From: Enterobacteria phage T6
Direction: 5' to 3' (one strand)
Length of the DNA stretch: 64,000 nt
Sequence record: MH550421
Under the pieces are notes generated by a model. That model did no database searches. It worked only from the letters and a program-made list of their open reading frames with translations, and was not told the origin of the DNA. The stretch's first letter is position 1. Each line of letters opens with the position of its first letter. Made by a program: the position numbers and the translations under genes. This document shows positions 1 to 56,510 of this stretch, piece after piece.

Positions 1-1
1 A

Positions 2-388
2 CAAAATGCCTACGGGTTCTTAGCTAATGGTTTACCGCTTTATTGCGATACCAACAGCCCATTAGATTATGTAATCGTTGGCGTAGTAGAAAATATCGGT
101 GAAAAAGAAATTGTTGGATCAATTTTCTATGCTCCGTATACAGAAGGTCTTGACTTAGATGACCCTGAACATGTAGGTGCATTTAAAGTTGTAGTTGATC
201 CAGAAAGTTTGCAGCCATCTATCGGTTTATTAGTTAGATATGCTTTATCTGCAAATCCTTACACTGTAGCAAAAGATGAAAAAGAAGCAAGAATAATTGA
301 TGGTGGAGACATGGATAAAATGGCGGGTCGTTCAGATTTGTCTGTTTTATTAGGTGTTAAGCTACCAAAAATTATCATTGATGAATAA
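2..388 (+). CDS. 24: Capsid vertex protein gp24, 3' portion (5' end upstream of window)
   Basis: Frame is open from window start to TAA at 386-388 (ends ...LPKIIIDE); lies immediately upstream of convergent rnlB as in T4; call rests on synteny. Confidence 0.45.
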   Translation, partial: QNAYGFLANGLPLYCDTNSPLDYVIVGVVENIGEKEIVGSIFYAPYTEGLDLDDPEHVGAFKVVVDPESLQPSIGLLVRYALSANPYTVAKDEKEARIIDGGDMDKMAGRSDLSVLLGVKLPKIIIDE

Positions 389-394
389 AACAAA

Positions 395-415
395 GGGACC
401 TTTCGGTCCCTTTTT
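395..415. terminator. Bidirectional rho-independent terminator between convergent genes 24 and rnlB
   Basis: GGGACC-TTTC-GGTCCC hairpin followed by TTTTT; T-rich on the other strand as well. Confidence 0.5.
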
Positions 416-417
416 AT

Positions 418-1422
418 TTAACTTACCAATTCAATCCAAGCCGGACGAAGTACATCTTGTACCATTTTAACTAATTCCTTCTTAATCAAAGACGGATTAT
501 CCGCTTGAGTTAGAGTAATACCTTCACGAGAAGTTTCTTCCAAAATATCTTGAACAGTTAGTCCCATCACCTTTCCAAAATCCTTTGGACCAATTTCGCC
601 AATTTTAGAAATAACGTTATTTACTCGGTTCAGTGTAACGTAACAAGCTAAAATTCCAACCAATTTGTTATCAGCTTCTGACAGTTCAACTTTAGCTTTA
701 ATAGGCTTATCAGACTTTTTCTTTTCACTAAATTTAGAGTTCTTGCATTTGATGGCTACACGATTGCGATTAGGCAGCCAAGAAGGATAACAAGGTTTCA
801 ATACATATCCTTCAGCGGTAAATACTTCGCCTTTTGCTTCAGCATTCCAAACGCATTTATTTGCATCAACTAATCCAGCATGGTCTACCGTAAAATTATA
901 ATCCTGTACGACAGAATCTAAATCATTTGGCAATTTAATCAGCTCTTCAAATTTACCGCGACCTAAAAGTGGAGCCATTTTAAATTTAAACGTATTACAG
1001 AATGATTCCATCATATAATCATCGACATAAGTTACATCACCACTTTCTGTAGTAACAATAATGTCAAATACATAAAAATCTTTATCACCATAATCGACAT
1101 TCTTCTGAATGCCAGGTCCAGCGAATTCGCCAAAGACTTGATAAGATACAACCGCTGAAGTTTCCATAATATCTTGTACTGCTTTAATGGAATCAGCGTA
1201 ATTCTTCAAAATAATTTCATACCCAAAGAAATCTTCAGCAGGAAGAATAGGACCAGTGCGTTTAGCACAAGTTACTTTATCACGCTCAATAATCAATGAG
1301 AAATTTGTGCCATGAATCTTTTCACGAGCTACCCATTCGCCGCCAGTCAATCCTAAACTGTAAAGTTTTTCAATAAATTTAGAGTTGTAATGATTTTCAA
1401 GACTGCTATACTTTTTAAACAT
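418..1422 (-). CDS. rnlB: RNA ligase 2 (Rnl2)
   Basis: 334-aa ORF with KIHGTN nucleotidyltransferase motif I; size and sequence match my recollection of T4 Rnl2. Confidence 0.9.
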
Positions 1423-1431
1423 AATTAATCC

Positions 1432-1710
1432 TCAAAATGTAATTTCTAACCAATCACCATCACGCTGATCACTATTAACTTTAAAGCTGAATCCTTCTTT
1501 TCTCAGCCAATCACCAATTTCTTCAGTAATCAATTTATCACGAGCAGTACAATAATAACTAAAATATGTTTTACCTTGTTCAGCTGCTTTATTAGCAAGT
1601 TCCGAAAAATCTTTAATAAAACACTCTAGCTTAAACTGTTTGCTTTTAAGTGCTTTTTCGCGTAATTGATTAGCAAAAGATTCATTTTCATAAAGATCAT
1701 ACTGTTCCAT
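1432..1710 (-). CDS. Hypothetical protein, 92 aa (position of T4 24.2)
   Basis: ORF directly downstream of rnlB on the same strand; no recognised motif. Confidence 0.5.
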   Translation of the reverse strand: MEQYDLYENESFANQLREKALKSKQFKLECFIKDFSELANKAAEQGKTYFSYYCTARDKLITEEIGDWLRKEGFSFKVNSDQRDGDWLEITF

Positions 1711-1912
1711 TTTTCACCTTTTTATTAATATGTCTTTTTCTATAGACAACTTTTTCTCGAGTTTCAAATTTATTCTTAGCAGTCATAGCTCGAGCCCATA
1801 ATACAGCCACTTCTTTTGCCTGTAAGTTTAATTCACGAGCAATTTCAATGAATGACTTTCCAGACTCATGAAGAGTAAACACCACAACCTCAGTTCTCAT
1901 AATCAATCTCAT
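1697..1912 (-). CDS. Small putative helix-turn-helix protein, 71 aa (position of T4 24.3)
   Basis: ORF with HTH-like segment GKSFIEIARELNLQAKEV; overlaps upstream ORF by 14 nt. Confidence 0.45.
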   Translation of the reverse strand: MRLIMRTEVVVFTLHESGKSFIEIARELNLQAKEVAVLWARAMTAKNKFETREKVVYRKRHINKKVKNGTV

Positions 1913-1981
1913 GTTATCGAGTTGGTGCCATTATATACATCATTTTCTGATTGTGTTTTACGTGCTTTCAAAATGAAGAAA

Positions 1982-1995
1982 GGGGCCGAAGCCCC
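1982..1995 (-). terminator. Terminator hairpin downstream of hoc
   Basis: GGGGC-CGAA-GCCCC hairpin; on the gene strand followed by T-rich TTTCTTCATTTT. Confidence 0.4.
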
Positions 1996-2001
1996 TTATG
2001 A

Positions 2002-3133
2002 TTATGGATAGGTATAGATGATACCAGTTTCTAAAGCAGTTTTATGAATGATGTATCCATTACGTGATTCTTGAACATCAACTTCTGGATAGTCTTTCAT
2101 CATCTTCTGAAGAGTGTAACGATGCAGGTAGTATTTACTATCTGGATCTTCAGTTTTCCAATCTTTACCTTCTTCAGTCATTTTTTGAATTTCATCCATA
2201 ACCCACCAACCGCACCAGATGTAAGCTGAAGTACGATGTGGAAGAGGATGAACATAAGGTAATTCACCTTCTGGTTCTGGAGCAACTTTATCAGTTACCT
2301 GAACTTGACCTTCTGCTGTAATAGTTTTGCTATCATAATCAGTAGCAGTAACGACGGCAGTCACTTCAATAGTTTGACTTCCAATAGATGAGGTATCAAC
2401 GGTATATACATTAGTTGACCCTTCTACAGGAGAAGAATCTTTCTTCCATGAATACGCAATTTGCGCTTCTTCTGGAGCATCAGTAACATTAGCAGTAAAT
2501 GTAGCCGAAGCATCTTGTTGAACGTTAATAGAAGGAGGAGTCAATGTAACCTGTGGATTCATTGTCTTCTTATTAACCGTTAATGATACTTCATTAGAAG
2601 TAACTTCCTTTTCATTGTAATTTTCTGCAGTTACTTGGGCTACGCATTTAATTCTTTTTAACTCCACTTGTAGTTGGAGTGTAATTGAATGTAGCGGAAG
2701 TTGCTTCGTCCACAGGAGAACCGTCAACGTACCACTGATATGTGGCGTTTGCGCCCGATGGCTGCGAAGCTAAAGTAGCGGTAAATTCAACAGCTGTTCC
2801 GATTACTCCAGCATCAGGGCTACCAGGAGTTACGGCTAAAGTAGTTGTTTGTGTCTTATTTTGAACTGTGATAGTTGTACTAATTTCAGCTGTTTCGGGA
2901 CTACTATCGGCAACTTGATTTGTTGCAACTACTTTAATAGTCTTTTGACCGGCAGGTCCTTTTAGTACATAACTAAAAGTTGCTGACGTTTCTTCCTGTG
3001 GAACATCGTCTACAGTCCAAGCATAGGTAATAGTTCCACCTCCAGTTTCACCACTGGGTGTAGCAGTAAACTGCTTAGTTTCATCAATAACCCCTGTTGG
3101 TGTTTTAGGAGTTATATCAACTGTAAAAGCCAT
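2002..3133 (-). pseudogene. hoc: Outer capsid protein Hoc, interrupted by a +1 frameshift (or sequencing error)
   Basis: Two overlapping ORFs (2648..3133 and 2002..2727) both encode Ig-like Hoc sequence; frame changes at an A5 run (plus-strand T run 2655-2659); 1132 nt total = 376 codons + stop + 1 extra nt. Confidence 0.8.
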
Positions 3134-3142
3134 AAGTTATCC

Positions 3143-3823
3143 TTATTTTAATGTTACGAAAGAAGAATTACGTGTTTCACGAATTAGAACTGATCCGTCG
3201 CGATTAATGTAATAAATTAAGCTAAATAAAGTTTGGTGTGCCGACGCATGTTCAAAACTAGTTGGTTGAGATTTCCAATCCGGAGTTTCAGCGATCCATT
3301 GATAAATCCACCAAGGAACAGTGCAGAATCCTGGATTTTTTCCAATCAGCTGAAGATTCGGACTAAAGTTTTCCGGAAGAGTAAATACAGACGGCTTTTC
3401 AGATTCAATAATCTCAGCTACAGCCTGTTCGAATTTTTCTTCAACAAAAGGAGTATCTTCAATCAAAACTGAGGTATTTTCAGGAATTTTATCAGTTTCT
3501 ACTACTTCAATTTTAATGTCAGATTTAATCGGAGAATCAATCAGAAGTGCTGCTTCTGGATTGACTTCTTCATCGTCATATTTTAATCCCTCTGCGGCAT
3601 CAGCAGCATCAATTAAGTCTTTAATAGATAACCCATCAGTCTCTGGCATAGGTTCACTAGCGAGCTTCTGGAGGGCTTCTTCAATATCATTAACGATATT
3701 ATCAAAAGATTTATTCTTTTTGACCTTTATACCAAACTGTTCAGCATATTCAGCTAATTTAGCTTTAGCTTCTTTGTTATCATCAAGAGCCTTCAGCTCT
3801 GCAATATAATCTTTATCTATCAT
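3143..3823 (-). CDS. inh: Inhibitor of prohead protease (Inh)
   Basis: 226-aa ORF immediately upstream of hoc; size and N-terminus MIDKDYIAELK consistent with T4 Inh. Confidence 0.75.
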   Translation of the reverse strand: MIDKDYIAELKALDDNKEAKAKLAEYAEQFGIKVKKNKSFDNIVNDIEEALQKLASEPMPETDGLSIKDLIDAADAAEGLKYDDEEVNPEAALLIDSPIKSDIKIEVVETDKIPENTSVLIEDTPFVEEKFEQAVAEIIESEKPSVFTLPENFSPNLQLIGKNPGFCTVPWWIYQWIAETPDWKSQPTSFEHASAHQTLFSLIYYINRDGSVLIRETRNSSFVTLK

Positions 3824-3836
3824 AATATTTCCTCAG

Positions 3837-3844
3837 TATAAATA
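3837..3844 (+). promoter_or_regulatory. Late promoter (TATAAATA) upstream of segE/uvsW
   Basis: Exact TATAAATA 29 nt upstream of the segE ATG; sits in a near-palindromic TATAAATATAGATATATTTATTA that also gives a late-promoter-like element for inh on the other strand. Confidence 0.45.
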
Positions 3845-3872
3845 TAGATATATTTATTACTCGGAAAATAGT

Positions 3873-4490
3873 ATGTACCACTTTGTATATGAAACAACAA
3901 ATCTAATAAATGGTAAAAAGTATATAGGAAAGCACTCTACTGATGACTTGAATGATGGTTACCTTGGTTCCGGTAAGGCAATTCAGCAGGCTATAAAGAA
4001 ATATGGTGAAAACAATTTCTCTAGAACAATACTAAAAGAGTTTAAAACTTCCGAAGAAGCGTACATGTATGAAGAAGAAATTATAACTCCTGAACTAATA
4101 AAAAGCAAAAATTATTATAATATGAAACCTGGCGGAATTGGTGGAATTGTTATGACTACAGAGGTTATAGCAAAGATGAAAGAATCTTCCGCTAAAAGAT
4201 TTGAAAACTCACCGGGCACGGTATTAGGTAAAACTTGTTATACTAATGGAACTAAAAATATTTTTATTAAACCTGGAGAACTTGTTCCAGAAGGATTTGT
4301 AAAAGGGATGGTTCATCCTAATAGAAAGTCCAGAAAAGGATGTAAAGTCAAACCGACTACCACAGGAACTTTTTGGGTCAATAATGGCGCAATAAATAAA
4401 TTAATACAACCAGACGGTATTATTCCCGACGGATTTATTAAAGGTCGTCTCATGAAAAGAGATTCTAAAGGCAAATTTAGTAAGGCATAA
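3873..4490 (+). CDS. segE: GIY-YIG homing endonuclease SegE
   Basis: 205-aa ORF with GIY-YIG motifs (KYIGKHS ... DGYLGSG); located between inh and uvsW as in T4. Confidence 0.8.
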   Translation: MYHFVYETTNLINGKKYIGKHSTDDLNDGYLGSGKAIQQAIKKYGENNFSRTILKEFKTSEEAYMYEEEIITPELIKSKNYYNMKPGGIGGIVMTTEVIAKMKESSAKRFENSPGTVLGKTCYTNGTKNIFIKPGELVPEGFVKGMVHPNRKSRKGCKVKPTTTGTFWVNNGAINKLIQPDGIIPDGFIKGRLMKRDSKGKFSKA

Positions 4491-4492
4491 TT

Positions 4493-6000
4493 ATGGATAT
4501 TAAAGTACATTTTCACGACTTCAGTCATGTACGCATCGATTGTGAAGAGAGCACGTTTCACGAATTAAGAGATTTCTTTTCGTTTGAGGCCGATGGATAT
4601 AGATTTAATCCTCGCTTCAGATGTGGCAACTGGGATGGACGAATCCGTCTTTTAGATTATAATCGACTTCTTCCATTCGGCTTAGTCGGGCAAATTAAAA
4701 AGTTCTGTGATAACTTTGGCTATAAAGCCTGGATTGACCCACAAATTAACGAAAAAGAAGAATTATCAAGAAAAGATTTTGATGAATGGCTTTCTAAATT
4801 AGAAATCTATTCAGGAAATAAAAGAATTGAACCACACTGGTATCAAAAAGATGCAGTGTTCGAAGGATTAGTTAATCGTCGTAGAATTCTTAATCTTCCA
4901 ACATCTGCAGGTAAATCTTTAATTCAAGCTTTGCTTGCGCGGTATTATTTGGAAAATTATGAAGGTAAAATTCTTATCATTGTTCCAACAACTGCTCTGA
5001 CAACTCAGATGGCTGATGACTTTGTTGACTATCGTTTATTCAGTCATGCAATGATAAAGAAAATCGGTGGCGGAGCATCAAAAGATGATAAATATAAAAA
5101 TGATGCACCAGTCGTTGTTGGTACATGGCAAACTGTAGTTAAACAACCGAAAGAATGGTTCTCACAGTTTGGAATGATGATGAATGATGAATGCCATCTT
5201 GCTACAGGAAAAAGTATTTCATCTATCATATCAGGATTAAATAATTGCATGTTTAAATTTGGTTTGTCTGGTTCATTACGTGATGGAAAAGCCAATATCA
5301 TGCAGTATGTTGGAATGTTTGGTGAAATATTTAAGCCAGTAACGACTTCTAAGTTAATGGAAGATGGACAAGTAACTGAGCTAAAAATTAATAGTATTTT
5401 TCTTCGCTATCCCGATGAGTTCACTACTAAATTAAAGGGAAAAACTTACCAAGAAGAAATAAAAATTATTACTGGGCTTAGTAAAAGAAATAAATGGATC
5501 GCTAAATTAGCTATTAAGCTTGCGCAAAAAGATGAAAACGCTTTTGTCATGTTTAACATGTATCGCATGGTAAAGCTATTTTCGATTTAATTAAAAATGA
5601 ATACGATAAAGTTTATTACGTATCAGGGGAAGTTGATACCGAAACCCGCAATATAATGAAAACCTTAGCTGAAAATGGTAAAGGAATAATTATAGTAGCT
5701 AGTTATGGTGTATTTTCTACTGGTATTTCAGTTAAAAATCTGCATCACGTTGTTTTAGCGCACGGTGTTAAATCAAAAATCATTGTATTACAAACAATCG
5801 GTCGTGTATTACGTAAGCATGGTTCTAAAACAATCGCAACAGTCTGGGACCTCATAGATGACGCGGGCGTAGTTTCTAAATCAAAAACATCTTCTAAAAA
5901 ATACTCGCATTTAAACTATCTTTTAAAACATGGAATTGATCGTATTCAGCGTTATGCTGATGAAAAGTTTAATTATGTGATGAAAGAGGTTAAACTTTGA
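4493..6000 (+). CDS. uvsW: UvsW SF2 helicase, reading frame broken by an apparent 1-nt deletion near 5552-5556
   Basis: ORF 4493..5590 carries Walker A (LPTSAGKS) and DECH; ORF 5656..6000 in another frame carries motif VI (QTIGRVLRK); restoring one A in TTTAACATG gives a continuous 502-codon gene. Confidence 0.85.
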
Positions 6001-6689
6001 ATTATAAATTAATATATGATAATTTAATTAATAGAGCCCAGAATCGGGCTCGCCTTAATGAATACACTGAAACACATCATATAATTCCTAGATGTATGGG
6101 TGGTACAAATGATAAGTGTAATTTAGTAGAACTAACGGCTGAAGAACATTTTATAGCCCATAAACTTTTAGCTAAAATTCATCCAAACCATTACGGTATA
6201 ATTAAAGCTGTTATATGTATGGGGATGAATTCAAATACTCATGAAAGACACGTCAATAAATCTTACGCATGGGAACGTCGTAAAATGGCAGAACTTCAAT
6301 CCGGCGAAGGTAATCCATTTTACGGAAAACACCATACGGAAGAACATAAACAATATATGTCAAAACTCATGAAAAGTCGTCCAATTACATGGGGAAATAA
6401 AATTAGTAAAACTAAAAGAATGAACCCAACGAAATGGACTGAAGAAGCTAAAAGATTACATTCAATCAATCAATCGGGTAAAAATAACGGCATGTATGGA
6501 AGGAAACATTCCGCTAAATCTATTCAGAAAATTAAAGATAACATGCCAGATAATTCAGGAGCTAATAACCCAGCTGCTAAACCTATAGAAGTAAATGGTG
6601 TTAAGTATAAATGTATGAAAGATGCTTCTAAAGCTACTGGATTATCAATGTACAAACTAAGAATACTTAGAAAAACAGTTAATTTATAA
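5997..6689 (+). CDS. HNH homing endonuclease, MobE-like, with NUMOD-type C-terminal DNA-binding modules
   Basis: 230-aa ORF; N-terminal HNH core (ETHHIIPRCMGG ... NLVELTAEEHFIAH) about 60 percent identical to MobE in this window; apparent TTG start overlapping the uvsW TGA stop. Confidence 0.8.
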   Translation: MNYKLIYDNLINRAQNRARLNEYTETHHIIPRCMGGTNDKCNLVELTAEEHFIAHKLLAKIHPNHYGIIKAVICMGMNSNTHERHVNKSYAWERRKMAELQSGEGNPFYGKHHTEEHKQYMSKLMKSRPITWGNKISKTKRMNPTKWTEEAKRLHSINQSGKNNGMYGRKHSAKSIQKIKDNMPDNSGANNPAAKPIEVNGVKYKCMKDASKATGLSMYKLRILRKTVNL

Positions 6690-6714
6690 GGGCTTCGGCC
6701 CTTTGGAGAAAAAG

Positions 6715-6945
6715 ATGTTACTAGAATTTAAACAATTTCTTTATGAAGCTTCTATTGATGAATTTATGGGTAAAATTGCCTCTTGTCAAACATTAGAAGG
6801 TTTAGAAGAACTTGAAGCTTATTATAAGAAAAGAGTCAAAGAAACTGAATTAAAAGATACTGATGACATCTCTGTGAGAGATGCTTTGGCAGGAAAAAGA
6901 GCTGAATTAGAAGATTCAGACGATGAAGTAGAAGAAAGCTTTTAA
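6715..6945 (+). CDS. uvsW.1: UvsW.1 (76 aa)
   Basis: ATG at 6715 preceded by GGGCTTCGGCCC hairpin and GGAGAAAAAG Shine-Dalgarno; 76-aa product matches the reported size of T4 UvsW.1. Confidence 0.65.
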   Translation: MLLEFKQFLYEASIDEFMGKIASCQTLEGLEELEAYYKKRVKETELKDTDDISVRDALAGKRAELEDSDDEVEESF

Positions 6946-7000
6946 ATTAAAAAAGGCCCAACCAAAAAGGAAGGGCCAAAACTATAGACTAAAGGTCACA

Positions 7001-7168
7001 CTATAGCAAAAGTTGCGTTTCATTTAATTGTTCTTCCGAACTTTCTGAAACTGGTAGTTCTTTAATGTAATTATAGCAAGGCCCAGGATGTACAGGACCT
7101 TTGTCTGTTTCAACAACCAATGCAGAATCGATTGGAGTTTTACAGACAACACAAATCTTATCTGACAT
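7001..7168 (-). CDS. Small Cys-containing protein, 55 aa (position of T4 uvsY.-2)
   Basis: ATG preceded by GAGGAGACAATC; encodes MSDKICVVCK...HPGPC; below the ORF-track size cutoff, found by reading. Confidence 0.4.
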   Translation of the reverse strand: MSDKICVVCKTPIDSALVVETDKGPVHPGPCYNYIKELPVSESSEEQLNETQLLL

Positions 7169-7196
7169 GATTGTCTCCTCTGAATTATATATCTAT

Positions 7197-7421
7197 TTAT
7201 ACAACTCTCATATGCATATCAATGCCCATATCTTTAGAATAAAAATATTCATCAAGATATCCGGCAAATTTTCCTTTAATATAAAGGACATCTTCACCAC
7301 ACGGGTGGTCGGCCAGGATACGAATATCCTGACGCTTAAGATTATGCTTTTTCATTAAGAATTGAATTTCCGTTTCAAATTCTTCTTCATAATTAAAAGC
7401 ATCATCAATACTATATTTCAT
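7197..7421 (-). CDS. Hypothetical protein, 74 aa (position of T4 uvsY.-1)
   Basis: ORF immediately downstream of uvsY; its start overlaps the uvsY stop. Confidence 0.5.
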   Translation of the reverse strand: MKYSIDDAFNYEEEFETEIQFLMKKHNLKRQDIRILADHPCGEDVLYIKGKFAGYLDEYFYSKDMGIDMHMRVV

Positions 7422-7834
7422 TATTTTCCAGCCTCAAATGCCCGCATGTCTTGAATATGCTTAATAGCAAATCCACGTGATTTAATAGCATCAAGAGCTC
7501 CGCTACAGAAATCTAATAAAATCCCCCAATACTGTAACGAGGTATCAACCTTTAAAACATCCTTATCAGCTGATAGAACTGTCTTCATTTCTGATTTCTC
7601 GTAACGATCCATACTAAATTCATCACCATCTCCTCGTCCCGAGTAGTAGTCTAATTTAGCTTTAAGAGCAACTTTTTTCTGTGCGTCAATTCTAAGCATT
7701 TCCTTTTTAATACTTGAATGCTTATTAAGCCATTTACTATATAACATCACATTATTAGCTGCTTCATACTGTAATTTAGTCGAATCTATAAACACATCTT
7801 TCTTCAATTCTTCTTGAAGATCTTCTAATCTCAT
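7421..7834 (-). CDS. uvsY: Recombination mediator protein UvsY
   Basis: 137-aa ORF MRLEDLQEELKKDVFID...; matches T4 UvsY in size and sequence as I recall it. Confidence 0.9.
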   Translation of the reverse strand: MRLEDLQEELKKDVFIDSTKLQYEAANNVMLYSKWLNKHSSIKKEMLRIDAQKKVALKAKLDYYSGRGDGDEFSMDRYEKSEMKTVLSADKDVLKVDTSLQYWGILLDFCSGALDAIKSRGFAIKHIQDMRAFEAGK

Positions 7835-7900
7835 ATTGTTCTCTATTCAATTGTTATTGGATGGACTTAGATTCATTATACCACGTTTTAACGTGAAGCA

Positions 7901-8299
7901 TTATACTCTATTACTGGAAGCCAGTTGCAGTTTTATCTGCTCAATATCATCGGGATTATCGATGACCGAAAAGCGTATTTCTACTATCAGAGTATAATCA
8001 TCATAAACGGGTATTACATTAACTGCTAATTTATCAATACGTGGCTCGTAGTTTCTTACTGCGCTTTCAATGTTACGCTCAACAGTATCAGCAGTAAGAG
8101 GAGTCATATTCTCAAAAAGTTGGTCAGATAAATCGCATCCAAATTCTGGGTCAAACGGCCTTGACCCTTTCCTGGTTGTAATAATTCCCAAAAGACTGTT
8201 TTTAATTGACCTTAATCCAAGTGATCTGGAAACATCTTTGTTCCAATCCATTTTCATTTCCGGGTCAATGTCAGAATAAAGCTTATTAATATTTGCCAT
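7901..8299 (-). CDS. 25: Baseplate wedge protein gp25
   Basis: 132-aa ORF; size, sequence and position next to gp26 match T4 gp25. Confidence 0.9.
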   Translation of the reverse strand: MANINKLYSDIDPEMKMDWNKDVSRSLGLRSIKNSLLGIITTRKGSRPFDPEFGCDLSDQLFENMTPLTADTVERNIESAVRNYEPRIDKLAVNVIPVYDDYTLIVEIRFSVIDNPDDIEQIKLQLASSNRV

Positions 8300-8925
8300 T
8301 ACAATAGCTCAAAGAATTCTTTGAGTCCTCTTATTACATGAGCGTGAGTTTTTCCACACTCTGGACACTTAATTGGAACAGCCAAATAAACAGTAGGCTT
8401 TAAAAGCATATCTTTTATAGCTACAATATCTGACTCTGTGATGATAGAGTATAAATCTTCCAATTCTTTTTCATTTAAGTCTTCAATTGGAATGCTTTCA
8501 CCGTTAGCATGAATCGTTTCTATACATGATACTATCATGTGGGCTATATTTTTATCATCAAAAATTTTAGGGTAATGGAACTTAATTTTAATGTCACCCA
8601 GTGTATACCAGAGGTCTTCTGGTGCATCTATTTGTGTATGTAATAGATTTATATGGGTTGGTATTTCAGTTCCACAGGTGCACTTCCAGGAGTTTTCGTG
8701 ATTAACTTCTCCAAGAGAATGCGCCCATAAATGAATCAACAGTAGTTCTGATTCTTGGCGGTTTAAATCTTTTGCATTTGTACAGTCTTTGATTAGCTTT
8801 TTAACGATCTCTTCTACTGAACCGTTCTTTTTAGCAGTAATAAGTTCTAGATATTCTTTAAGAGTAAATGCGCGGCAGTTGATTATTTTAGAACCAACTC
8901 TCACATCAAATTTGTATTCATACAT
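8299..8925 (-). CDS. 26: Baseplate hub protein gp26
   Basis: 208-aa ORF upstream of gene 25, divergent from gene 51 as in T4. Confidence 0.8.
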
Positions 8926-8946
8926 ATTTAGCTCCTTTATTTATCA

Positions 8947-8958
8947 TATTTATAAATA
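8947..8958. promoter_or_regulatory. Divergent overlapping late promoters for gene 26 (minus) and gene 51 (plus)
   Basis: Palindromic TATTTATAAATA: TATAAATA on plus at 8951-8958 and on minus at 8947-8954. Confidence 0.5.
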
Positions 8959-8975
8959 GAATAAAAGGAGCATCT

Positions 8976-9725
8976 ATGGCAAACATTATTCGTTGTAAAT
9001 TACCAGATGGTGTTCATCGTTTTAAACCATTTACGGTAGAAGATTATCGAGATTTTTTGTTAGTTCGAAACGATATAGAACATCGGTCACCACAAGAACA
9101 AAAAGAAATAATTGCTGATTTAATTGCCGATTATTTTGGAGACTATCCGAAGACTTGGCAACCATTTATATTTTTGCAGGTATTTGTAGGGTCAATAGGT
9201 AAAACTAAAGTACCTGTCACATTTGTATGTCCAAAATGTAAAAAAGAAAAGACAGTTCCATTTGAAATATATCAAAAAGAATTAAAGGAACCTGTTTTTG
9301 ATGTAGCTAATGTTAAAATTAAATTAAAGTTTCCTTCTGAGTTTTATGAAAATAAAGCAAAGATGATTACTGAAAATATTCATTCTGTTCAAGTAGATGA
9401 AATATGGTATGATTGGAAGGAAATTAGTGAATCAAGCCAAATAGAACTTGTTGATGCCATCGAGATAGAAACATTAGAAAAAATTCTCGATGCAATGAAT
9501 CCTATTAATTTAACATTGCATATGTCATGTTGTAATAAGTATGTAAAAAAATACACTGATATAGTAGATGTGTTTAAGCTATTAGTTAACCCAGATGAAA
9601 TATTTACTTTTTATCAAATCAATCACACGCTCGTAAAAAGTAATTATAGCTTAAATTCAATAATGAAAATGATTCCTGCTGAGCGCGGATTCGTATTAAA
9701 ACTGATTGAGAAGGATAAACAATAA
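8976..9725 (+). CDS. 51: Baseplate hub assembly protein gp51
   Basis: 249-aa ORF; size and position upstream of gene 27 match T4 gp51. Confidence 0.8.
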
Positions 9726-10897
9726 TGAGTATGTTGCAACGCCCAGGATATCCAAATCTCAGCGTTAAATTATTTGATAGCTACGACGCTTGGAGTAATA
9801 ATAGATTTGTTGAATTAGCTGCTACTATTACCACATTAACTATGCGGGATTCTCTTTATGGCCGAAATGAAGGAATGCTGCAGTTTTATGATTCTAAAAA
9901 TATCCATACAAAAATGGATGGAAATGAAATAATTCAGATTTCTGTAGCTAACGCAAACGATATTAATAATGTTAAAACACGAATTTATGGATGTAAGCAT
10001 TTTTCCGTGTCAGTAGATTCAAAGGGTGATAACATCATTGCTATTGAATTGGGAACTATTCATTCTATAGAAAATCTTAAATTTGGCAGACCATTTTTCC
10101 CTGATGCAGGTGAATCTATAAAAGAAATGCTTGGTGTCATTTATCAAGATCGCACATTATTAACTCCAGCAATAAATGCTATAAATGCTTATGTTCCTGA
10201 TATTCCATGGACTAGCACATTTGAAAACTATTTGTCATATGTAAGAGAAGTTGCTCTAGCTGTAGGAAGTGACAAATTTGTATTTGTATGGCAAGACATC
10301 ATGGGAGTTAACATGATGGACTATGATATGATGATAAATCAAGAACCATATCCAATGATTGTCGGTGAGCCATCTTTAATAGGTCAATTTGTCCAAGAAT
10401 TAAAATATCCATTAGCATATGATTTCGTTTGGTTGACTAAATCGAATCCTCACAAACGTGACCCAATGAAAAACGCTACTATCTATGCTCATTCATTTTT
10501 AGATTCTTCATTGCCAATGATTACTACAGGAAAGGGTGAAAACTCTATTGTAGTGTCAAGGTCAGGTGCTTATTCTGAAATGACTTATAGGAATGGATAT
10601 GAAGAAGCTATTCGTCTTCAAACTATGGCACAATATGACGGTTATGCTAAATGTTCTACTGTCGGTAATTTTAACTTGACTCCTGGTGTTAAAATTATTT
10701 TTAATGATAGTAAAAACCAATTTAAAACAGAATTTTACGTTGATGAAGTTATCCATGAATTATCCAATAATAATTCAGTAACTCATCTATATATGTTCAC
10801 TAATGCAACGAAACTGGAAACAATAGACCCAGTTAAGGTTAAAAATGAATTTAAATCTGATACTACCACTGAAGAAAGTAGTTCTTCCAATAAGTAA
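9725..10897 (+). CDS. 27: Baseplate hub protein gp27
   Basis: 390-aa ORF in the 51-27-28-29 block. Confidence 0.85.
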
Positions 10898-11378
10898 TAA
10901 AGAAGTTTCTATTCCTAAAATGGGTCTTAAACATTATAACATTTTAAAAGATGTTAAAGGTCCTGATGAAAATTTAAAACTTCTTATTGATTCTATTTGT
11001 CCGAATTTATCACCGGCAGAAGTTGATTTCGTTTCTATTCATTTATTGGAATTTAATGGAAAGATTAAATCTCGTAAAGAAATAGATGGCTATACTTATG
11101 ACATTAATGATGTTTATGTGTGCCAAAGATTAGAATTTCAATACCAAGGAAATACATTTTATTTTAGACCTCCTGGAAAATTTGAACAATTTTTAACGGT
11201 GAGCGATATGTTATCTAAATGCTTGCTTAAGGTCAACGATGAAGTTAAAGAAATTAATTTTCTTGAGATGCCAGCATTCGTTTTAAAATGGGCAAATGAT
11301 ATTTTTACAACTTTAGCAATTCCTGGCCCTAATGGTCCAATAACTGGAATTGGCAATATTATTGGATTATTTGAATGA
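10845..11378 (+). CDS. 28: Baseplate hub distal subunit gp28
   Basis: 177-aa ORF overlapping the end of gene 27. Confidence 0.8.
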
Positions 11379-13147
11379 AAAAGCCACAAGAAATGCAAAC
11401 GATGCGTAGAAAAGTTATTTCAGATAATAAACCAACACAGGAAGCGGCTAAATCCGCTTCTAACACTTTATCTGGACTTAACGATATATCTACGAAATTG
11501 GATGATGCTCAAGCTGCTTCTGAATTAATAGCTCAAACTGTCGAAGAAAAATCGAATGAAATAGTTGGAGCAATTGGTAACGTAGAAAGCGCAGTGAGTG
11601 ATACTACTGCCGGTTCTGAGTTAATTGCTGAAACTGTCGAAATTGGCAACAATATTAATAAAGAAATTGGTGAATCACTCGGAAGCAAATTAGATAAATT
11701 AACAAGTTTACTAGAGCAAAAAATTCAGACAGCTGGAATTCAACAGACTGGAACTAGTTTAGCCACAGTTGAAAGCGCTATTCCTGTTAAAGTCGTTGAG
11801 GATGATACTGCTGAATCTGTGGGTCCTTTATTACCGACTCCTGAAGCAGTTAATAATGATCCTGACGCTGATTTTTTCCCTACCCCTCAGCCAGTTGAGC
11901 CAAAGCAAGAATCACCAGAAGAAAAACAGAAAAAAGAAGCATTTAACTTAAAATTATCTCAAGCTTTAGATAAATTAACAAAGACAGTTGATTTTGGATT
12001 TAAGAAATCCATTTCAATTAGTGATAAAATATCAAGCATGTTATTTAAGTACACCATCAGTGCTGCTATTGAAGCTGCTAAAATGACTGCAATGATATTG
12101 GCTGTTGTTGTTGGAATAGATCTGCTGATGGTTCATTTTAAATACTGGTCAGATAAATTTTCAAAAGCCTGGGATTTGTTTAATACTGACTTTACTAAAT
12201 TCTCTAGCGAAACCGGAACATGGGGTCCTTTATTGCAGAGCATCTTTGATTCTATTGATAAAATTAAACAACTTTGGGAAGCGGGAGATTGGGGTGGATT
12301 GACAGCAGCTATTGTTGAAGGACTCGGAAGTGTTCTTTTTAATTTAGGTGAACTTATTCAATTAGGTATGGCTAAATTATCTGCAGCAATTCTTCGAGTC
12401 ATTCCTGGTATGAAGGATACTGCTGATGAAGTAGAAGGAAGAGCATTAGAAAATTTCCAAAATTCTACTGGAGCATCTCTCAATAAAGAAGACCAGGAAA
12501 AAGTTGCAAATTATCAAGATAAACGAATGAATGGAGACCTTGGTCCGATAGCAAAAGGATTAGATAAAATTGCTAATTGGAAAACTCGTGCATCTAATTG
12601 GATTCGTGGGGTTGATAATAAAGAAGCACTAACTACCGACGAAGAACGTGCAGCAGAAGAAGAAAAATTAAAGCAGCTTTCACCTGAAGAAAGAAAAAAT
12701 GCTTTAATGAAGGCTAATGAAGCCCGTGCCGCAATGATTCGCTTTGAAAAATATGCTGATTCAGCTGATATGAGTAAAGACTCAACGGTTAAATCAGTTG
12801 AAGCTGCCTATGAAGACCTTAAAAAACGGATGGATGACCCGGATTTAAATAATTCACCGGCAGTTAAAAAAGAACTTGCTGCTAGATTTTCTAAAATTGA
12901 TGCTACTTATCAAGAGCTCAAGAAAAATCAGCCTAATGCCAAACCTGAAACTTCTGCTAAATCACCAGAAGCAAAACAAGTCCAGGTAATAGAAAAGAAT
13001 AAAGCACAGCAAGCTCCTGTTCAACAAGCATCTCCTTCGATCAATAATACTAATAATGTTATTAAGAAAAATACTGTCGTTCATAATATGACACCCGTAA
13101 CGAGCACGACTGCTCCTGGTGTATTTGATGCGACTGGAGTTAATTAA
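11375..13147 (+). CDS. 29: Baseplate hub / tail-length determinator gp29
   Basis: 590-aa ORF with coiled-coil and transmembrane-like central segment; matches T4 gp29 in size. Confidence 0.85.
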   Translation: MKKPQEMQTMRRKVISDNKPTQEAAKSASNTLSGLNDISTKLDDAQAASELIAQTVEEKSNEIVGAIGNVESAVSDTTAGSELIAETVEIGNNINKEIGESLGSKLDKLTSLLEQKIQTAGIQQTGTSLATVESAIPVKVVEDDTAESVGPLLPTPEAVNNDPDADFFPTPQPVEPKQESPEEKQKKEAFNLKLSQALDKLTKTVDFGFKKSISISDKISSMLFKYTISAAIEAAKMTAMILAVVVGIDLLMVHFKYWSDKFSKAWDLFNTDFTKFSSETGTWGPLLQSIFDSIDKIKQLWEAGDWGGLTAAIVEGLGSVLFNLGELIQLGMAKLSAAILRVIPGMKDTADEVEGRALENFQNSTGASLNKEDQEKVANYQDKRMNGDLGPIAKGLDKIANWKTRASNWIRGVDNKEALTTDEERAAEEEKLKQLSPEERKNALMKANEARAAMIRFEKYADSADMSKDSTVKSVEAAYEDLKKRMDDPDLNNSPAVKKELAARFSKIDATYQELKKNQPNAKPETSAKSPEAKQVQVIEKNKAQQAPVQQASPSINNTNNVIKKNTVVHNMTPVTSTTAPGVFDATGVN

Positions 13148-13155
13148 GGAATAAT

Positions 13156-14250
13156 ATGGCAATTGTTAAAGAAATAACTGCTGATTTAATTAAAAAGTCC
13201 GGCGAGAAAATTTCAGCCGGACAGAGTACTAAATCAGAAGTAGGAACTAAAACATACACAGCCCAGTTTCCAACTGGGCGTGCTAGTGGTAATGACACTA
13301 CAGGGGACTTCCAGGTAACAGATCTGTATAAGAATGGATTATTATTTACTGCATACAATATGTCATCTAGGGATTCTGGAAGTCTTAGATCGATGAGATC
13401 TAACTACTCTTCTTCATCTTCGAGTATTTTACGTACAGCCAGAAACACTATTAGTAGTACAGTATCAAAACTATCAAATGGATTAATATCAAATAATAAT
13501 TCAGGAACAATAAGTAAAGCTCCTATCGCAAACATTCTTTTACCGAGATCTAAATCTGATGTTGATACATCATCACACAGATTTAATGATGTTCAAGAAA
13601 GCCTTATCAGTAGAGGCGGAGGTACTGCTACTGGTGTGCTAAGTAATATTGCTTCAACCGCAGTATTTGGGGCGCTGGAAAGTATAACACAAGGTATAAT
13701 GGCTGATAATAATGAACAGATTTATACGACAGCCAGAAGTATGTATGGTGGTGCTGAAAATAGAACTAAAGTGTTTACATGGGATTTGACTCCACGTTCA
13801 ACAGAAGATTTAATGGCTATTATTAATATCTATCAATATTTTAACTATTTTTCTTATGGTAAAACGGGTAAATCTCAATATGCTGCTGAAATAAAGGGGT
13901 ATTTAGATGATTGGTATCGTTCTACGTTAATTGAACCTTTATCTCCGGAAGACGCAGCTAAAAATAAAACACTATTTGAGAAAATGACATCGAGTTTAAC
14001 TAACGTTCTAGTAGTTTCAAACCCGACAGTTTGGATGGTGAAAAACTTTGGCGCAACATCTAAATTTGATGGAAAAACGGAAATATTTGGTCCATGTCAA
14101 ATACAGAGCATTAGATTTGATAAAACACCTAATGGTAACTTTAACGGATTAGCTATTGCTCCAAACCTCCCTAGTACATTTACTCTCGAGATTACTATGA
14201 GAGAAATTATCACGTTAAACCGTGCTTCTTTATATGCGGGGACTTTTTAA
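13156..14250 (+). CDS. 48: Baseplate tail-tube junction protein gp48
   Basis: 364-aa ORF; size and position match T4 gp48. Confidence 0.85.
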   Translation: MAIVKEITADLIKKSGEKISAGQSTKSEVGTKTYTAQFPTGRASGNDTTGDFQVTDLYKNGLLFTAYNMSSRDSGSLRSMRSNYSSSSSSILRTARNTISSTVSKLSNGLISNNNSGTISKAPIANILLPRSKSDVDTSSHRFNDVQESLISRGGGTATGVLSNIASTAVFGALESITQGIMADNNEQIYTTARSMYGGAENRTKVFTWDLTPRSTEDLMAIINIYQYFNYFSYGKTGKSQYAAEIKGYLDDWYRSTLIEPLSPEDAAKNKTLFEKMTSSLTNVLVVSNPTVWMVKNFGATSKFDGKTEIFGPCQIQSIRFDKTPNGNFNGLAIAPNLPSTFTLEITMREIITLNRASLYAGTF

Positions 14251-42921: not shown

Positions 42922-42996
42922 TTTTATTTCCTTTTTAATTTAATTAACAGTTGGTGCTATGACGATGTATGACCTCATAGCTGGTCAGTGAGATAA

Positions 42997-43674
42997 TTAT
43001 AAGCTATTTATAGGAAGCAATTGATACTTGCAAGATTTCACAGATTCAATGAAAACATTTTTAGCTTTCGGAGAATCAATATTTAAAATTTTTCTATAAG
43101 CCTTTAACTTTATAGAATAATTATTCCAGACTAAATTATCAGTCTGTTCATCATGTTTATCAATTATATTTAAAAATGAATCAAGCAAGATAAACGTCTC
43201 AAACGAAATTATGTTCGATTGCAGAAGTTTAAAAATATAACTTGACTGAACCTTTGGATTATATTCAAAGATTTCTTTAAAAGCAGAAACTTCAACTTTT
43301 TTACTAAAATAATAAATATTGCGAATATCTTCTTCAAACTTAAATTTAATTTGCTTTAAGCGTCCGATATATTCACGATAAAACACAAGTGCATCAGCGT
43401 CAGAGATGTCACCAATCCAAGCATCTTGGTTAGCAACAAGATTGCTTATAAAGATTAAAGCAAGTTCCTTTAATTTATATTTTTCTGATAACTTCTGGAA
43501 AAAATACTTATCCCTTCGCTTTTGATAAGCGGCATCAGACACCCGCATGCACCAATTATACTTAATAACATCATACTTTCCATTCATATGTTGTTTTATC
43601 ATTAAGTATAATTTATAAACTGATTTACCATCAATGTATCTTTCACCACCAGCAGGCATGGCGGAGTTTAATCA
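42997..43674 (-). CDS. 59: Helicase loader gp59, with a frameshift after codon 5 and a C-terminal extension
   Basis: ATGATTAAACTCCGC (MIKLR) at 43674 is out of frame with the main ORF (42997..43659, MPAGGERY...) because of one extra G/C at 43660-43664; the ORF also runs 8 codons past the T4-like ...SCKY end. Confidence 0.8.
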
Positions 43675-44010
43675 TAGCAGAAAATCTAATGTATTAGTTT
43701 TTTCACAACGAACAACAGAAGGACGTAAAAGATTTTCGTCAATAGCTTCTGACTGAATTTTTTCAATTATACCCGAAGGAATAAATTTAGCAAATTGAGT
43801 TTCAGGAATAGAATTTTCTTCTAAGAATGCTGTTGTAGCTTCAAGATAACTCATTCCAAACTCTTCTACCATTTTTTCAATAATAAATCCATTTTCTTGA
43901 CGATCAAGAAGCTTTGCTATTTCATCCTTTTCTTTCTTGATTGAAAGTTCTTTTTCTGAAAGACCGGTCTCATCGACCGGACGAATGTCATTTAGAGAAA
44001 ACTGTGTCAT
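43672..44010 (-). CDS. 33: Late transcription co-activator gp33
   Basis: 112 aa from MTQFSLNDIRPVDE... (track ORF has a 3-codon extension). Confidence 0.85.
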   Translation of the reverse strand: MTQFSLNDIRPVDETGLSEKELSIKKEKDEIAKLLDRQENGFIIEKMVEEFGMSYLEATTAFLEENSIPETQFAKFIPSGIIEKIQSEAIDENLLRPSVVRCEKTNTLDFLL

Positions 44011-45287: not shown

Positions 45288-48200
45288 ATGGCCGAGATTA
45301 AAAGAAAGTTCAGAGCAGAAGATGGTCTGGACGCAGGTGGCGATAAAATAATCAACGTAGCTTTAGCTGATCGTACCGTAGGAACTGACGGTGTTAACGT
45401 TGATTACTTAATTCAAGAAAACACAGTTCAGCAATATGATCCAACTCGTGGATATTTAAAAGATTTTGTAATCATTTATAATAATCGTTTTTGGGCAGCA
45501 ACGGATAATATTCCAAAACCTGCTGGAAATTTTAATAGAATTCGTTGGAAAGCATTACGTACTGATGCCGTATATACAACCGTATCATCTGGACCATATC
45601 AATTAAAATCCGGAGAAGCAATTTCAGTAGATACATCAGTTGGCAATGACATTGAGTTTACTTTACCACCTTCTCCGCTTGATGGAGAAACCGTAATAAT
45701 TCAAGATATCGGTGGAAAACCTGGCATAAATCAGGTTAAAATAAATTCTTCAAATCAGAGTATTGTCAATTTTAGAGGTGAACAGGTACGTTCAGTTTTA
45801 ATGACTCATCCAAAGTCACAGATGGTATTCATTTTTAATAATCGTTTGTGGCAAATGTATATTGCTGATTATAGCAGAGAAGCTGCGATTGTTACTCCAT
45901 CGACTGCATATCAAGCACAATCTAATGATTTTATCGTACGTAGATTTACTTCTGCCGAACCGATTAATGTTAAACTTCCAAGATTTGCCAATCATGGAGA
46001 TATCATTAATTTCGTTGATTTAGATAAATTAAATCCACTTTATCATACAATTGTTACGACATATGATGAAACGACGTCAGTGCAAGAAGTTGGAACTCAT
46101 TCCATTGAAGGCCGTACATCGATTGACGGTTTCTTGATGTTTGATGATAATGAGAAATTGTGGAGATTGTTTGACGGGGATAGTAAAGCACGTTTACGCA
46201 TTATAACAACTAATTCTAATATTCGTCCAAATGAAGAAGTTATGGTATTTGGTGCGAATAACGGAACAACTCAGACAATTGAGCTTCAGCTTCCGACTGA
46301 TATTTCTGTTGGTGATACTGTTAAAATTTCCATGAATTACATGAGAAAAGGACAAACAGTTAAAATCAAAGCTGCCGGTGAAGATAAAATTGCTTCTTCA
46401 GTTCAATTGCTGCAATTCCCAAAACGTTCAGAATATCCGCCTGAAGCTGAATGGGTAACAGTTCAAGAATTAGTTTTTAACGGTGAAACTAATTATGTTC
46501 CAGTTTTACAACTTGCTTATATAGAAGATTCTGATGGAAAATACTGGGTTGTACAGCAAAACGTTCCAACTGTAGAAAGAGTAGACTCTTTAAATGCTTC
46601 TACTAGAGCAAGATTAGGCGTAATTGCTTTAGCTACGCAAGCTCAAGCAAATGCTGATTTAGAAAATTCTCCACAAAAAGAATTGGCAATTACTCCAGAA
46701 ACGTTAGCTAATCGTACTGCTACAGAAACTCGCAGAGGTATTGCAAGAATAGCAACTACTGCTCAAGTGAATCAGAACACCACATTCTCTTTTGCAGATG
46801 ACCTTATCATCACTCCTAAAAAGCTGAATGAAAGAACTGCTACAGAAACTCGCAGAGGCGTTGCTGAAATTGCTACGCAGCAGGAAACTAATACAGGTAC
46901 TGATGATACTACAATCATCACTCCTAAAAAGCTTCAAGCCCGTCAAGGTTCTGAATCATTATCTGGTATTGTAACTTTTGTATCTACCGCAGGTGCTACT
47001 CCAGCTTCTAGTCGTGAATTAAATGGTACGAATGTTTATAATAAAAACACTAATAATTTAGTTGTTTCACCTAAAGCTTTGGATCAGTATAAAGCTACTC
47101 CAACGCAACAAGGCGCAGTAATTTTAGCAGTTGAAAGTGAAGTAATTGCTGGACAAAGCCAAGAAGGATGGGCAAATGCGGTTGTAACGCCAGAAACGTT
47201 ACATAAAAAGACATCAACTGATGGAAGAATTGGTTTAATTGAAATTGCTACGCAAAGTGAAGTTAATACAGGAACTGACTATACTCGTGCAGTCACTCCT
47301 AAAACTTTAAATGACCGTAGAGCAACTGAAAGTTTAAGTGGTATAGCTGAAATTGCTACGCAAGTTGAATTCGACGCAGGCGTCGACGATACTCGTATCT
47401 CTACACCATTAAAAATTAAAACCAGATTTAATAGTACTGATCGTACTTCTGTTGTTGCTCTATCTGGATTAGTTGAATCAGGAACTCTCTGGGACCATTA
47501 TACCCTTAATATTCTTGAAGCAAATGAGACACAGCGTGGTACACTTCGTGTAGCTACACAAGTTGAAGCTGCTGCAGGAACATTAGATAATGTTTTAATA
47601 ACTCCTAAAAAGCTTTTAGGTACTAAATCTACTGAAGCGCAAGAAGGTGTTATTAAAGTTGCAACTCAGTCTGAAACTGTGACTGGAACGTCAGCAAATA
47701 CTGCTGTATCTCCAAAAAATTTAAAATGGATTGTGCAGAGTGAACCTACTTGGGCAGCAACTACTGCGATAAGGGGCTTTGTTAAAACTTCTTCTGGTTC
47801 ATTAACGTTTGTTGGTAATGATACGGTAGGTTCAACACAGCCATTAGAATCATATGAGAAAAATGGTTATGCAGTATCACCATATGAATTAAATCGCGTA
47901 TTAGCAAATTACTTGCCATTAAAAGCAAAAGCTGTAGATAGTAATTTATTAGATGGTCTAGATTCGCTCCAGTTCATTCGTAGGGACATTGCACAAACAG
48001 TTAATGGTTCACTAACCTTAACCCAACAAACGAATCTGAGTGCCCCTCTTGTATCATCTAGTACAGCTACATTCGGTGGATCAGTTTCAGCAAATAGTAC
48101 ATTAACTATTTCTAATACTGGAACGGCAACTCAATTGATTTTTGAGAAAGGACCTCAAACTGGAACAAACCCGGCTCAAACGATAACTGTCAGAGTGTGG

Positions 48201-56206: not shown

Positions 56207-56510
56207 AGACCTTCCCCTTATGTTTCTGTTTGCGATTAGATTCTTTAAACGCTTTCTTCTTATCTTTATGGACAGAAGCTTTATTAAAATTATGTTTTGC
56301 GACTAAATTGTTCTCATAATGCTGAATTACCTCTCTTAAACATTTGCATGTGAATGAAAACTTTTTAGCTACACCACATTCAAATATATGTTCTCTTAAA
56401 TCACGTGTGTCAGTATATCCCATCTCAACAATAAAATGCCGTATTAGATTTTTATCTTTATCATTGAGGGAATTAAAATAGTCAGATTTTGAATTAATTT
56501 CCCTGGCCAA
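56196..56510 (-). CDS. Hypothetical basic Cys-containing protein, 104 aa
   Basis: ORF in the arn-motA block. Confidence 0.45.
   Translation of the reverse strand: MAREINSKSDYFNSLNDKDKNLIRHFIVEMGYTDTRDLREHIFECGVAKKFSFTCKCLREVIQHYENNLVAKHNFNKASVHKDKKKAFKESNRKQKHKGKVYDY

Follow-up and report, generated by a model that had tools for sequence, protein, structure and literature searches.

A one-base deletion splits the uvsW gene of bacteriophage T6 in sequence record MH550421 and is absent from other T6 genomes

The uvsW gene of Enterobacteria phage T6 is broken in sequence record MH550421 by the loss of a single A, such that the repair and recombination helicase it encodes is written as two pieces in different reading frames. 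The identity of the gene is clear and the frame break deterministic, and a chance pattern is excluded. Judged from the sequences compared here, it is either an error of the record or a mutation of one laboratory stock and is no trait of T6; one T6 record is broken, two T6 genomes and 489 relatives are intact, and the break is therefore not a T6 property. It most likely reflects an error in the MH550421 consensus, a reading that we favor modestly and whose technical cause we infer. The first-pass annotation of this DNA had attributed the interruption to a sequencing error or, alternatively, to a strain defective in uvsW, and the evidence narrows to the same two explanations, with the lesion now seen to be private to MH550421. 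The discrepancy itself is already known, in that it is tabulated without discussion in the supplement of PMC8573959, and MH550421 itself annotates the two pieces; that one uncommented line is all that we found in print about the uvsW defect of this T6 record.

The stretch of DNA analyzed, referred to here as the window, is 64 kb of phage T6 corresponding to bases 104707-168706 of MH550421, with a window-to-record offset of 104706; all 11 of the MH550421 reference alleles listed beyond 104,706 in Data Set S1 of PMC8573959 fit the window at this offset. MH550421 was reportedly assembled from Illumina reads (PMC8573959; Subedi and Barr, mSystems 2021). The comparison set comprised two further T6 sequences (AP018814 and T6-Hancock), T4/T4T, and PST. 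T6-Hancock is a 1972 stock sequenced by Illumina HiSeq, and its variants relative to MH550421 are tabulated in sheet 5 of Data Set S1 (PMC8573959). The alignment of the window with AP018814 covers 1..11000 and 13996-64000; for 11001-13995, the comparison is through the T6-Hancock table, which has no variant there. Positions are those of the window unless given as record positions. As written in MH550421, uvsW has the following parts:

4493..5590, + strand: uvsW 5′ piece, 365 aa, deposited as AXN58216.1 'helicase'
5554..5556, + strand: uvsW lesion site, T-AA here vs T-AAA in AP018814, T6-Hancock, T4T, and PST
5557..6000, + strand: 3′ portion of uvsW, read in the −1 frame and encoding UvsW residues 356-502, with RecA-like motor domain 2 and motifs IV-VI
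5656..6000, + strand: annotated uvsW 3′ ORF, 114 aa, AXN58217.1, starting at the first ATG (5656)

Codons 1-354 of the 5′ piece are authentic UvsW, with the N-terminal domain and RecA-like motor domain 1; the next 11 are out of frame (NMYRMVKLFSI) and end at a TAA. The authentic sequence is lost after ...DENAFVMF, and the premature stop is at 5588-5590. The missing base, at position 5555, is an A from Lys codon 355, where AAA is reduced to AA and the run TTTAAACAT is written as TTTAACAT. Bases 5554-5556 read TAA in the downstream frame, and the −1 frame is open from 5557, directly after this TAA, beginning HVSHGKAIFDLIKNEYDKVYYVSGEVDTETRNIM. When one A is put back in TTTAACATG, a single 502-aa ORF results. 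The first-pass annotation, made from the letters of this DNA, had placed a 1-nt deletion that changes TTTAAACATG to TTTAACATG within 5540-5660 and had predicted how the gene would read with one more A. The alignment with AP018814 confirms the deletion and its exact base, the restored frame reads as foreseen and aligns with the T4 UvsW structure 2OCA, and the interval encloses the lesion at 5555, the stop at 5588-5590, and the downstream ATG at 5656.

The break divides the helicase core. Motifs I (PTSAGKS, 4898-4918), II (DECH, 5186-5197), and III (SGS, 5267-5275) are in the 5′ ORF, and motif VI (QTIGRVLR, 5791-5814) is in the other (−1) frame after the stop; the two ORFs and their different frames, with motifs I and II in the first and motif VI in the second, were found where the first-pass annotation had described them. 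Pfam searches of ORF 4493..5590 identify UvsW_N (7.8e-43), ResIII (8.7e-17), and DEAD (7.7e-13), and the 3′ piece matches the tail of Helicase_C alone, over the last 47 model positions and below the Pfam threshold. The intact T6 allele carries all four Pfam domains, with Helicase_C at residues 338-442, and codon 355 corresponds to the first strand of RecA-like domain 2. Motor domain 2 (Helicase_C and motif VI) is thus not on the same polypeptide as motor domain 1 in the window sequence.

The identity of the gene is evident both from the protein and from its surroundings. Intact T6 UvsW (BBF63600.1, encoded in AP018814, where a 502-aa uvsW coding sequence is annotated) aligns over residues 1-502 with the T4 UvsW crystal structure 2OCA at near identity, and the gene order (inh, segE, uvsW, uvsW.1, uvsY.-2, uvsY.-1, uvsY) is as in T4. 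The neighbors of uvsW are as follows:

3873..4490, + strand: segE, GIY-YIG homing endonuclease, directly upstream of uvsW, same in T4
5997..6689, + strand: HNH/NUMOD3 homing endonuclease, mob-type, between uvsW and uvsW.1, away from the break
6703..6945, + strand: uvsW.1, 80 aa, Pfam UvsW-1, a normal separate small gene

The HNH/NUMOD3 gene has a TTG start that overlaps the uvsW stop and is present in PST and AP018814, but not in T4; the UvsW C-terminal residues beside this insertion are ...MKEVKL in T6 and ...MKTVNL in T4. The T6 uvsW.1 gene is called at 80 aa from a TTG, in comparison to 76 aa in T4 and PST, a difference that is probably only one of start-codon choice. We considered whether the homing endonucleases segE and HNH caused the break and rejected this, as there is no conversion tract or insertion there; apart from the missing A, the locus matches AP018814 at every base, and the flanking homing endonucleases are therefore not involved.

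The deletion is confined to one record. T6 record AP018814.1, from Japan, matches the window at 99.9% in the uvsW region, and between positions 1 and 11000, the sole difference from it is the missing A at 5555. T6-Hancock has the intact allele, recorded at position 110260 of MH550421 as T>TA and described as 'frameshift_variant c.1064dupA p.Asn355fs uvsW', and T4T and PST both have AAA at the site and an intact uvsW. Reads with an intact frame had been named in the first-pass annotation as evidence against an interrupted gene; an intact frame is what is found in the T6 stocks other than that of MH550421, and the interruption stands for the MH550421 sequence itself. More broadly, an 81-nt query spanning the deletion has no gap-free match in any of 489 related phage records, with the best match at 98.8%. 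IMG/VR, the JGI metagenome contigs, and the GTDB genomes contain no copy of a 37-mer with the deletion, but this is a weak negative because these collections hold few close relatives, the wild-type 38-mer at the site occurring just once in IMG/VR. The exact products AXN58216.1 and AXN58217.1 are found on one contig alone among approximately 15 billion proteins. Logan contigs running through the neighboring HNH gene were also sought, and the two found are PST-like and end before the uvsW site.

The uvsW deletion is not the only change private to MH550421. Between positions 13996 and 64000, the window and AP018814 differ at 16 positions, of which 46177, 46186, and 54640 are single-base substitutions private to AP018814; they are assigned to AP018814 because T6-Hancock shows no variant there, and at 46177 and 46186 PST and T4T side with the window. 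The remaining differences are private to the window, with T6-Hancock agreeing with AP018814 at every one, and T4T likewise wherever it is aligned. The one outlier is position 43678, a silent change in gene 33 at which PST has the window's C. Twelve of the 13 window-private changes fall within record positions 147.7-164.7 kb, and besides the uvsW deletion there are four private frame-shifting insertions in the 64 kb, in gene 59, arn.1, gene 52, and ac. The changes that affect coding are as follows:

43003..43072, − strand: 3′ end of gene 59, seven substitutions; Gln to Pro, Thr to Ser, and stop to Gln, adding 8 aa
43660, − strand: gene 59 (helicase loader), extra G in codon 6; product MIKLR followed by HACWW and a stop
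56312..56313, − strand: arn.1, extra TC; frame shift, creating a 104-aa ORF (AXN58289.1)
58689, − strand: gene 52 (topoisomerase II medium subunit), extra G; split into 383-aa and 56-aa ORFs
60001, − strand: ac (acridine resistance gene), extra C; frame shift at codon 40

The inserted bases in gene 52, ac, and arn.1 all duplicate the adjacent base or bases. All five private indels are at sites where they are possibly tolerated, three of them being in nonessential genes and the others in codon 6 of gene 59 and in gene 52; the gene 59 insertion is just ahead of an in-frame ATG, and the gene 52 insertion is within the last 14% of the gene. In gene 59, whose product is described as essential in T4 (PMC3016281), the ORF from Met6 survives and encodes 220 aa (AXN58277.1). 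The extra base of gene 59 is present in none of 498 related records, and the seven-substitution patch at its 3′ end in none of 465 relatives. This patch has seven substitutions within 70 nt, including five transversions and, on the + strand, five changes to G, a pattern that natural mutation rarely yields, and it is separated by 610-675 nt from the indel and substitution at the other end of the gene. This distance is about what one Sanger read covers, and we infer that the gene 59 defects at both ends may reflect the poor ends of one Sanger gap-closing read.

Other sources of the gene 59 patch were considered. A recombination tract acquired from another T-even phage was rejected, as its alleles are found in 0 of the 465 relatives, and T4 and PST are the same as AP018814 where aligned; templating from a repeat elsewhere was also rejected, the window containing no donor and only scattered 10- to 12-mers. 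We note that segG, which is present in T4 and PST, is absent from T6 between genes 32 and 59 (window 42922..42996), and that the patch adjoins this empty segG site, with alleles that differ from those of the segG-carrying phages.

These observations bear on the cause of the uvsW break, for which the most likely account is as follows. In MH550421 alone, codon 355 has lost one base, A3 becoming A2, and T6 as such has an intact 502-aa UvsW encoded by an ordinary T4-type SF2 helicase gene that is here read as two ORFs. The cause is most likely an error in the deposited consensus, in which case the phage would make normal UvsW and nothing would work differently. In favor of an error, the lesion is absent from the independent T6 sequences AP018814 and T6-Hancock, and AP018814, T6-Hancock, and T4 agree against the window at the other private frame breaks and at the gene 59 patch. 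There is also a precedent in the same gene, the frame error in uvsW of the T4 reference record. Against it, the deletion is in a run of just three A residues, in a gene that has 15 runs of at least five A or T. Moreover, single-base consensus indels are uncommon in Illumina assemblies.

Alternatively, the deletion is real, and MH550421 comes from a T6 stock that had lost uvsW function by spontaneous mutation, which we regard as a serious possibility. The written sequence does have, at the sequence level, a frameshift removing helicase motifs, as in the uvsW loss-of-function class that includes the dar and Shedu-escape mutants. The product would have 354 authentic and 11 foreign residues, and the N-terminal DNA-binding domain and motor domain 1 would be kept; because motor domain 2 (motifs IV-VI) would be lost, with no productive ATP hydrolysis or translocation, the truncated UvsW could not act as a helicase. 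By analogy with T4, such a phage would be viable but UV and hydroxyurea sensitive, would recombine less, and would continue R-loop-primed origin replication late in infection. Drift, selection on a Shedu host, or dar-type suppression of the gene 59 defect could each account for fixation of the lesion.

The gene is dispensable: T4 uvsW knockouts are viable, although hypersensitive to hydroxyurea and less recombination proficient, and relieve the DNA arrest seen in recombination mutants (PMC3016281). In T6, uvsW mutants arise readily and are viable; seven T6 escapers of the E. coli Shedu defense system had frameshift or stop mutations in uvsW, together with other unrelated mutations and deletions (bioRxiv 10.1101/2023.08.10.552762). 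A real mutation is also consistent with the reported Illumina basis of MH550421 and with what is seen between real T4 sublines, where the differences are about as many and frame-shifting duplications of one base occur (PMC8573959), as well as with the positions of the five private indels, all of which the phage might tolerate. The same genome also has the lesion in codon 6 of gene 59, a classical partner of dar/uvsW suppressors. What argues against a mutant stock is that the uvsW lesion is in one record alone, with the two other T6 sequences intact; that it is accompanied by frameshifts in genes 59 and 52 and by an unnatural-looking cluster of seven substitutions, which are more easily explained as consensus errors; and that the truncated product is on that single contig. 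It is improbable, in our estimation, that a uvsW-null lineage was co-selected with the gene 59 start lesion as a natural dar-type pair or was selected on a Shedu host, with loss of UvsW contributing to the excess of private mutations at 147.7-164.7 kb; users of the stock would then have a T6 defective in recombination repair, and their defense-system assays would give altered results, for instance through insensitivity to Shedu.

It is very improbable that the helicase works as two separately translated polypeptides, with motor domains 1 and 2 reassembling. Both halves do remain open reading frames, and both are annotated in MH550421, but the first ATG of the 3′ piece (5656) is 33 codons into domain 2, with the first strand and motif IV region gone; it has no Shine-Dalgarno sequence (GAAACCCGCAATATAATG), and, as noted above, the piece gives only a subthreshold match to Helicase_C. 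A functional two-piece helicase is rejected because the second ORF starts so far into domain 2 and lacks a ribosome-binding site. Furthermore, the two-piece arrangement is present in none of the 489 relatives, and the AP018814 alignment reveals no mobile element or intein at the break. Finally, programmed −1 ribosomal frameshifting or transcriptional slippage could in principle join the frames to make full-length UvsW, as the step from the first frame to the second is −1 and the two share a 34-nt overlap, but recoding is ruled out for practical purposes, as there is no slippery site (G TTT AAC at the zero-frame junction does not fit the X XXY YYZ heptamer), no A or T run at the junction sufficient for polymerase slippage, no downstream structure (minimum free energy of the 112 nt downstream, −16.7 kcal/mol, vs a shuffle mean of −16.3; z = −0.14), and no conservation, the two-frame layout being found in 0 of 489 relatives and AP018814, T6-Hancock, T4T, and PST all having a single frame.

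A second broken gene in the window behaves differently from uvsW:

2002..3133, − strand: hoc (head outer capsid protein), frame-broken, with an extra base just upstream of a stop at 2648-2650

The hoc sequence is GGAGTTAAAAAGAATTAAATGC in T6, compared with GGAGTAAAAAGAATTAAATGC in T4 and GGAGTTAAAAAAATTAAATGC in PST, and the break gives a 161-aa N-terminal ORF that ends ...SGVKKN before its stop and a second ORF with the remainder. In AP018814, hoc is identical to the window and annotated as two coding sequences, and the T6-Hancock table has no variant there. Because it is common to both T6 records, with no variant listed for T6-Hancock, the hoc break looks like a genuine inherited trait of T6, which from these sequences would be a Hoc-truncated phage. 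The hoc and uvsW breaks are alike in that both are one-base changes and both are in dispensable T-even genes, but that in hoc is not private to a record.

The finding adds nothing on the mechanism of UvsW, and its use is mostly practical, as a caution to those who work with MH550421, which has served as a T6 mapping reference and is cited in strain tables by several laboratories. Mapping or annotating against this record inherits the split uvsW and the broken genes 59, 52, arn.1, and ac; AP018814/NC_054907 is the safer reference for these five genes. For uvsW, 59, and 52, AP018814 is preferable as a T6 reference in its sequence, though not in its annotation. We note that the product names in AP018814 are often wrong transfers, with segE named 'tail tape measure protein' and uvsY 'ribonucleotide reductase large subunit', and gp24 is also labeled 'baseplate hub subunit and tail lysozyme'. 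Were the lesion real, the phage stock would lack uvsW function, which would be relevant to studies of recombination and repair, and also to defense-system assays because loss of uvsW lets T6 escape Shedu.

The closest known system is T4 UvsW (2OCA, 1RIF), together with its T6 orthologue (BBF63600.1/YP_010067329.1), and the window encodes the T6 protein exactly once the A is restored. T4 UvsW has the same domain set (UvsW_N, ResIII/DEAD, and Helicase_C) and the same neighborhood; the window differs from T4 in having the gene in two frames, and T6 and PST differ from it in having the extra HNH gene before uvsW.1. In T4, dar mutants, which are uvsW mutants, suppress the DNA arrest of gene 59, 46/47, uvsX, and uvsY mutants (PMC3016281). 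Like the dar pairs, MH550421 combines lesions in uvsW and gene 59, a link that is a lead from the literature, but unlike in those pairs, the gene 59 lesion may itself be an error or be bypassed from Met6. The Shedu-escaper mutants of T6 (Loeff et al., bioRxiv 10.1101/2023.08.10.552762) involve the same phage, the same gene, and the same class of lesion, and illustrate that uvsW-null T6 is viable; those mutants arose under selection and were checked against a parent that had been resequenced, whereas the MH550421 deletion is known from the record sequence alone. The T4 reference record is likewise wrong in frame at the 3′ end of uvsW, where the 587-aa NP_049796.1 is a fusion of uvsW and uvsW.1; this fusion is ascribed to a sequencing error that was fixed by resequencing (Kerr et al. 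2007, cited in PMC6486255). The T4 error fuses two genes at the 3′ end, whereas the MH550421 deletion splits uvsW in the middle of the helicase core.
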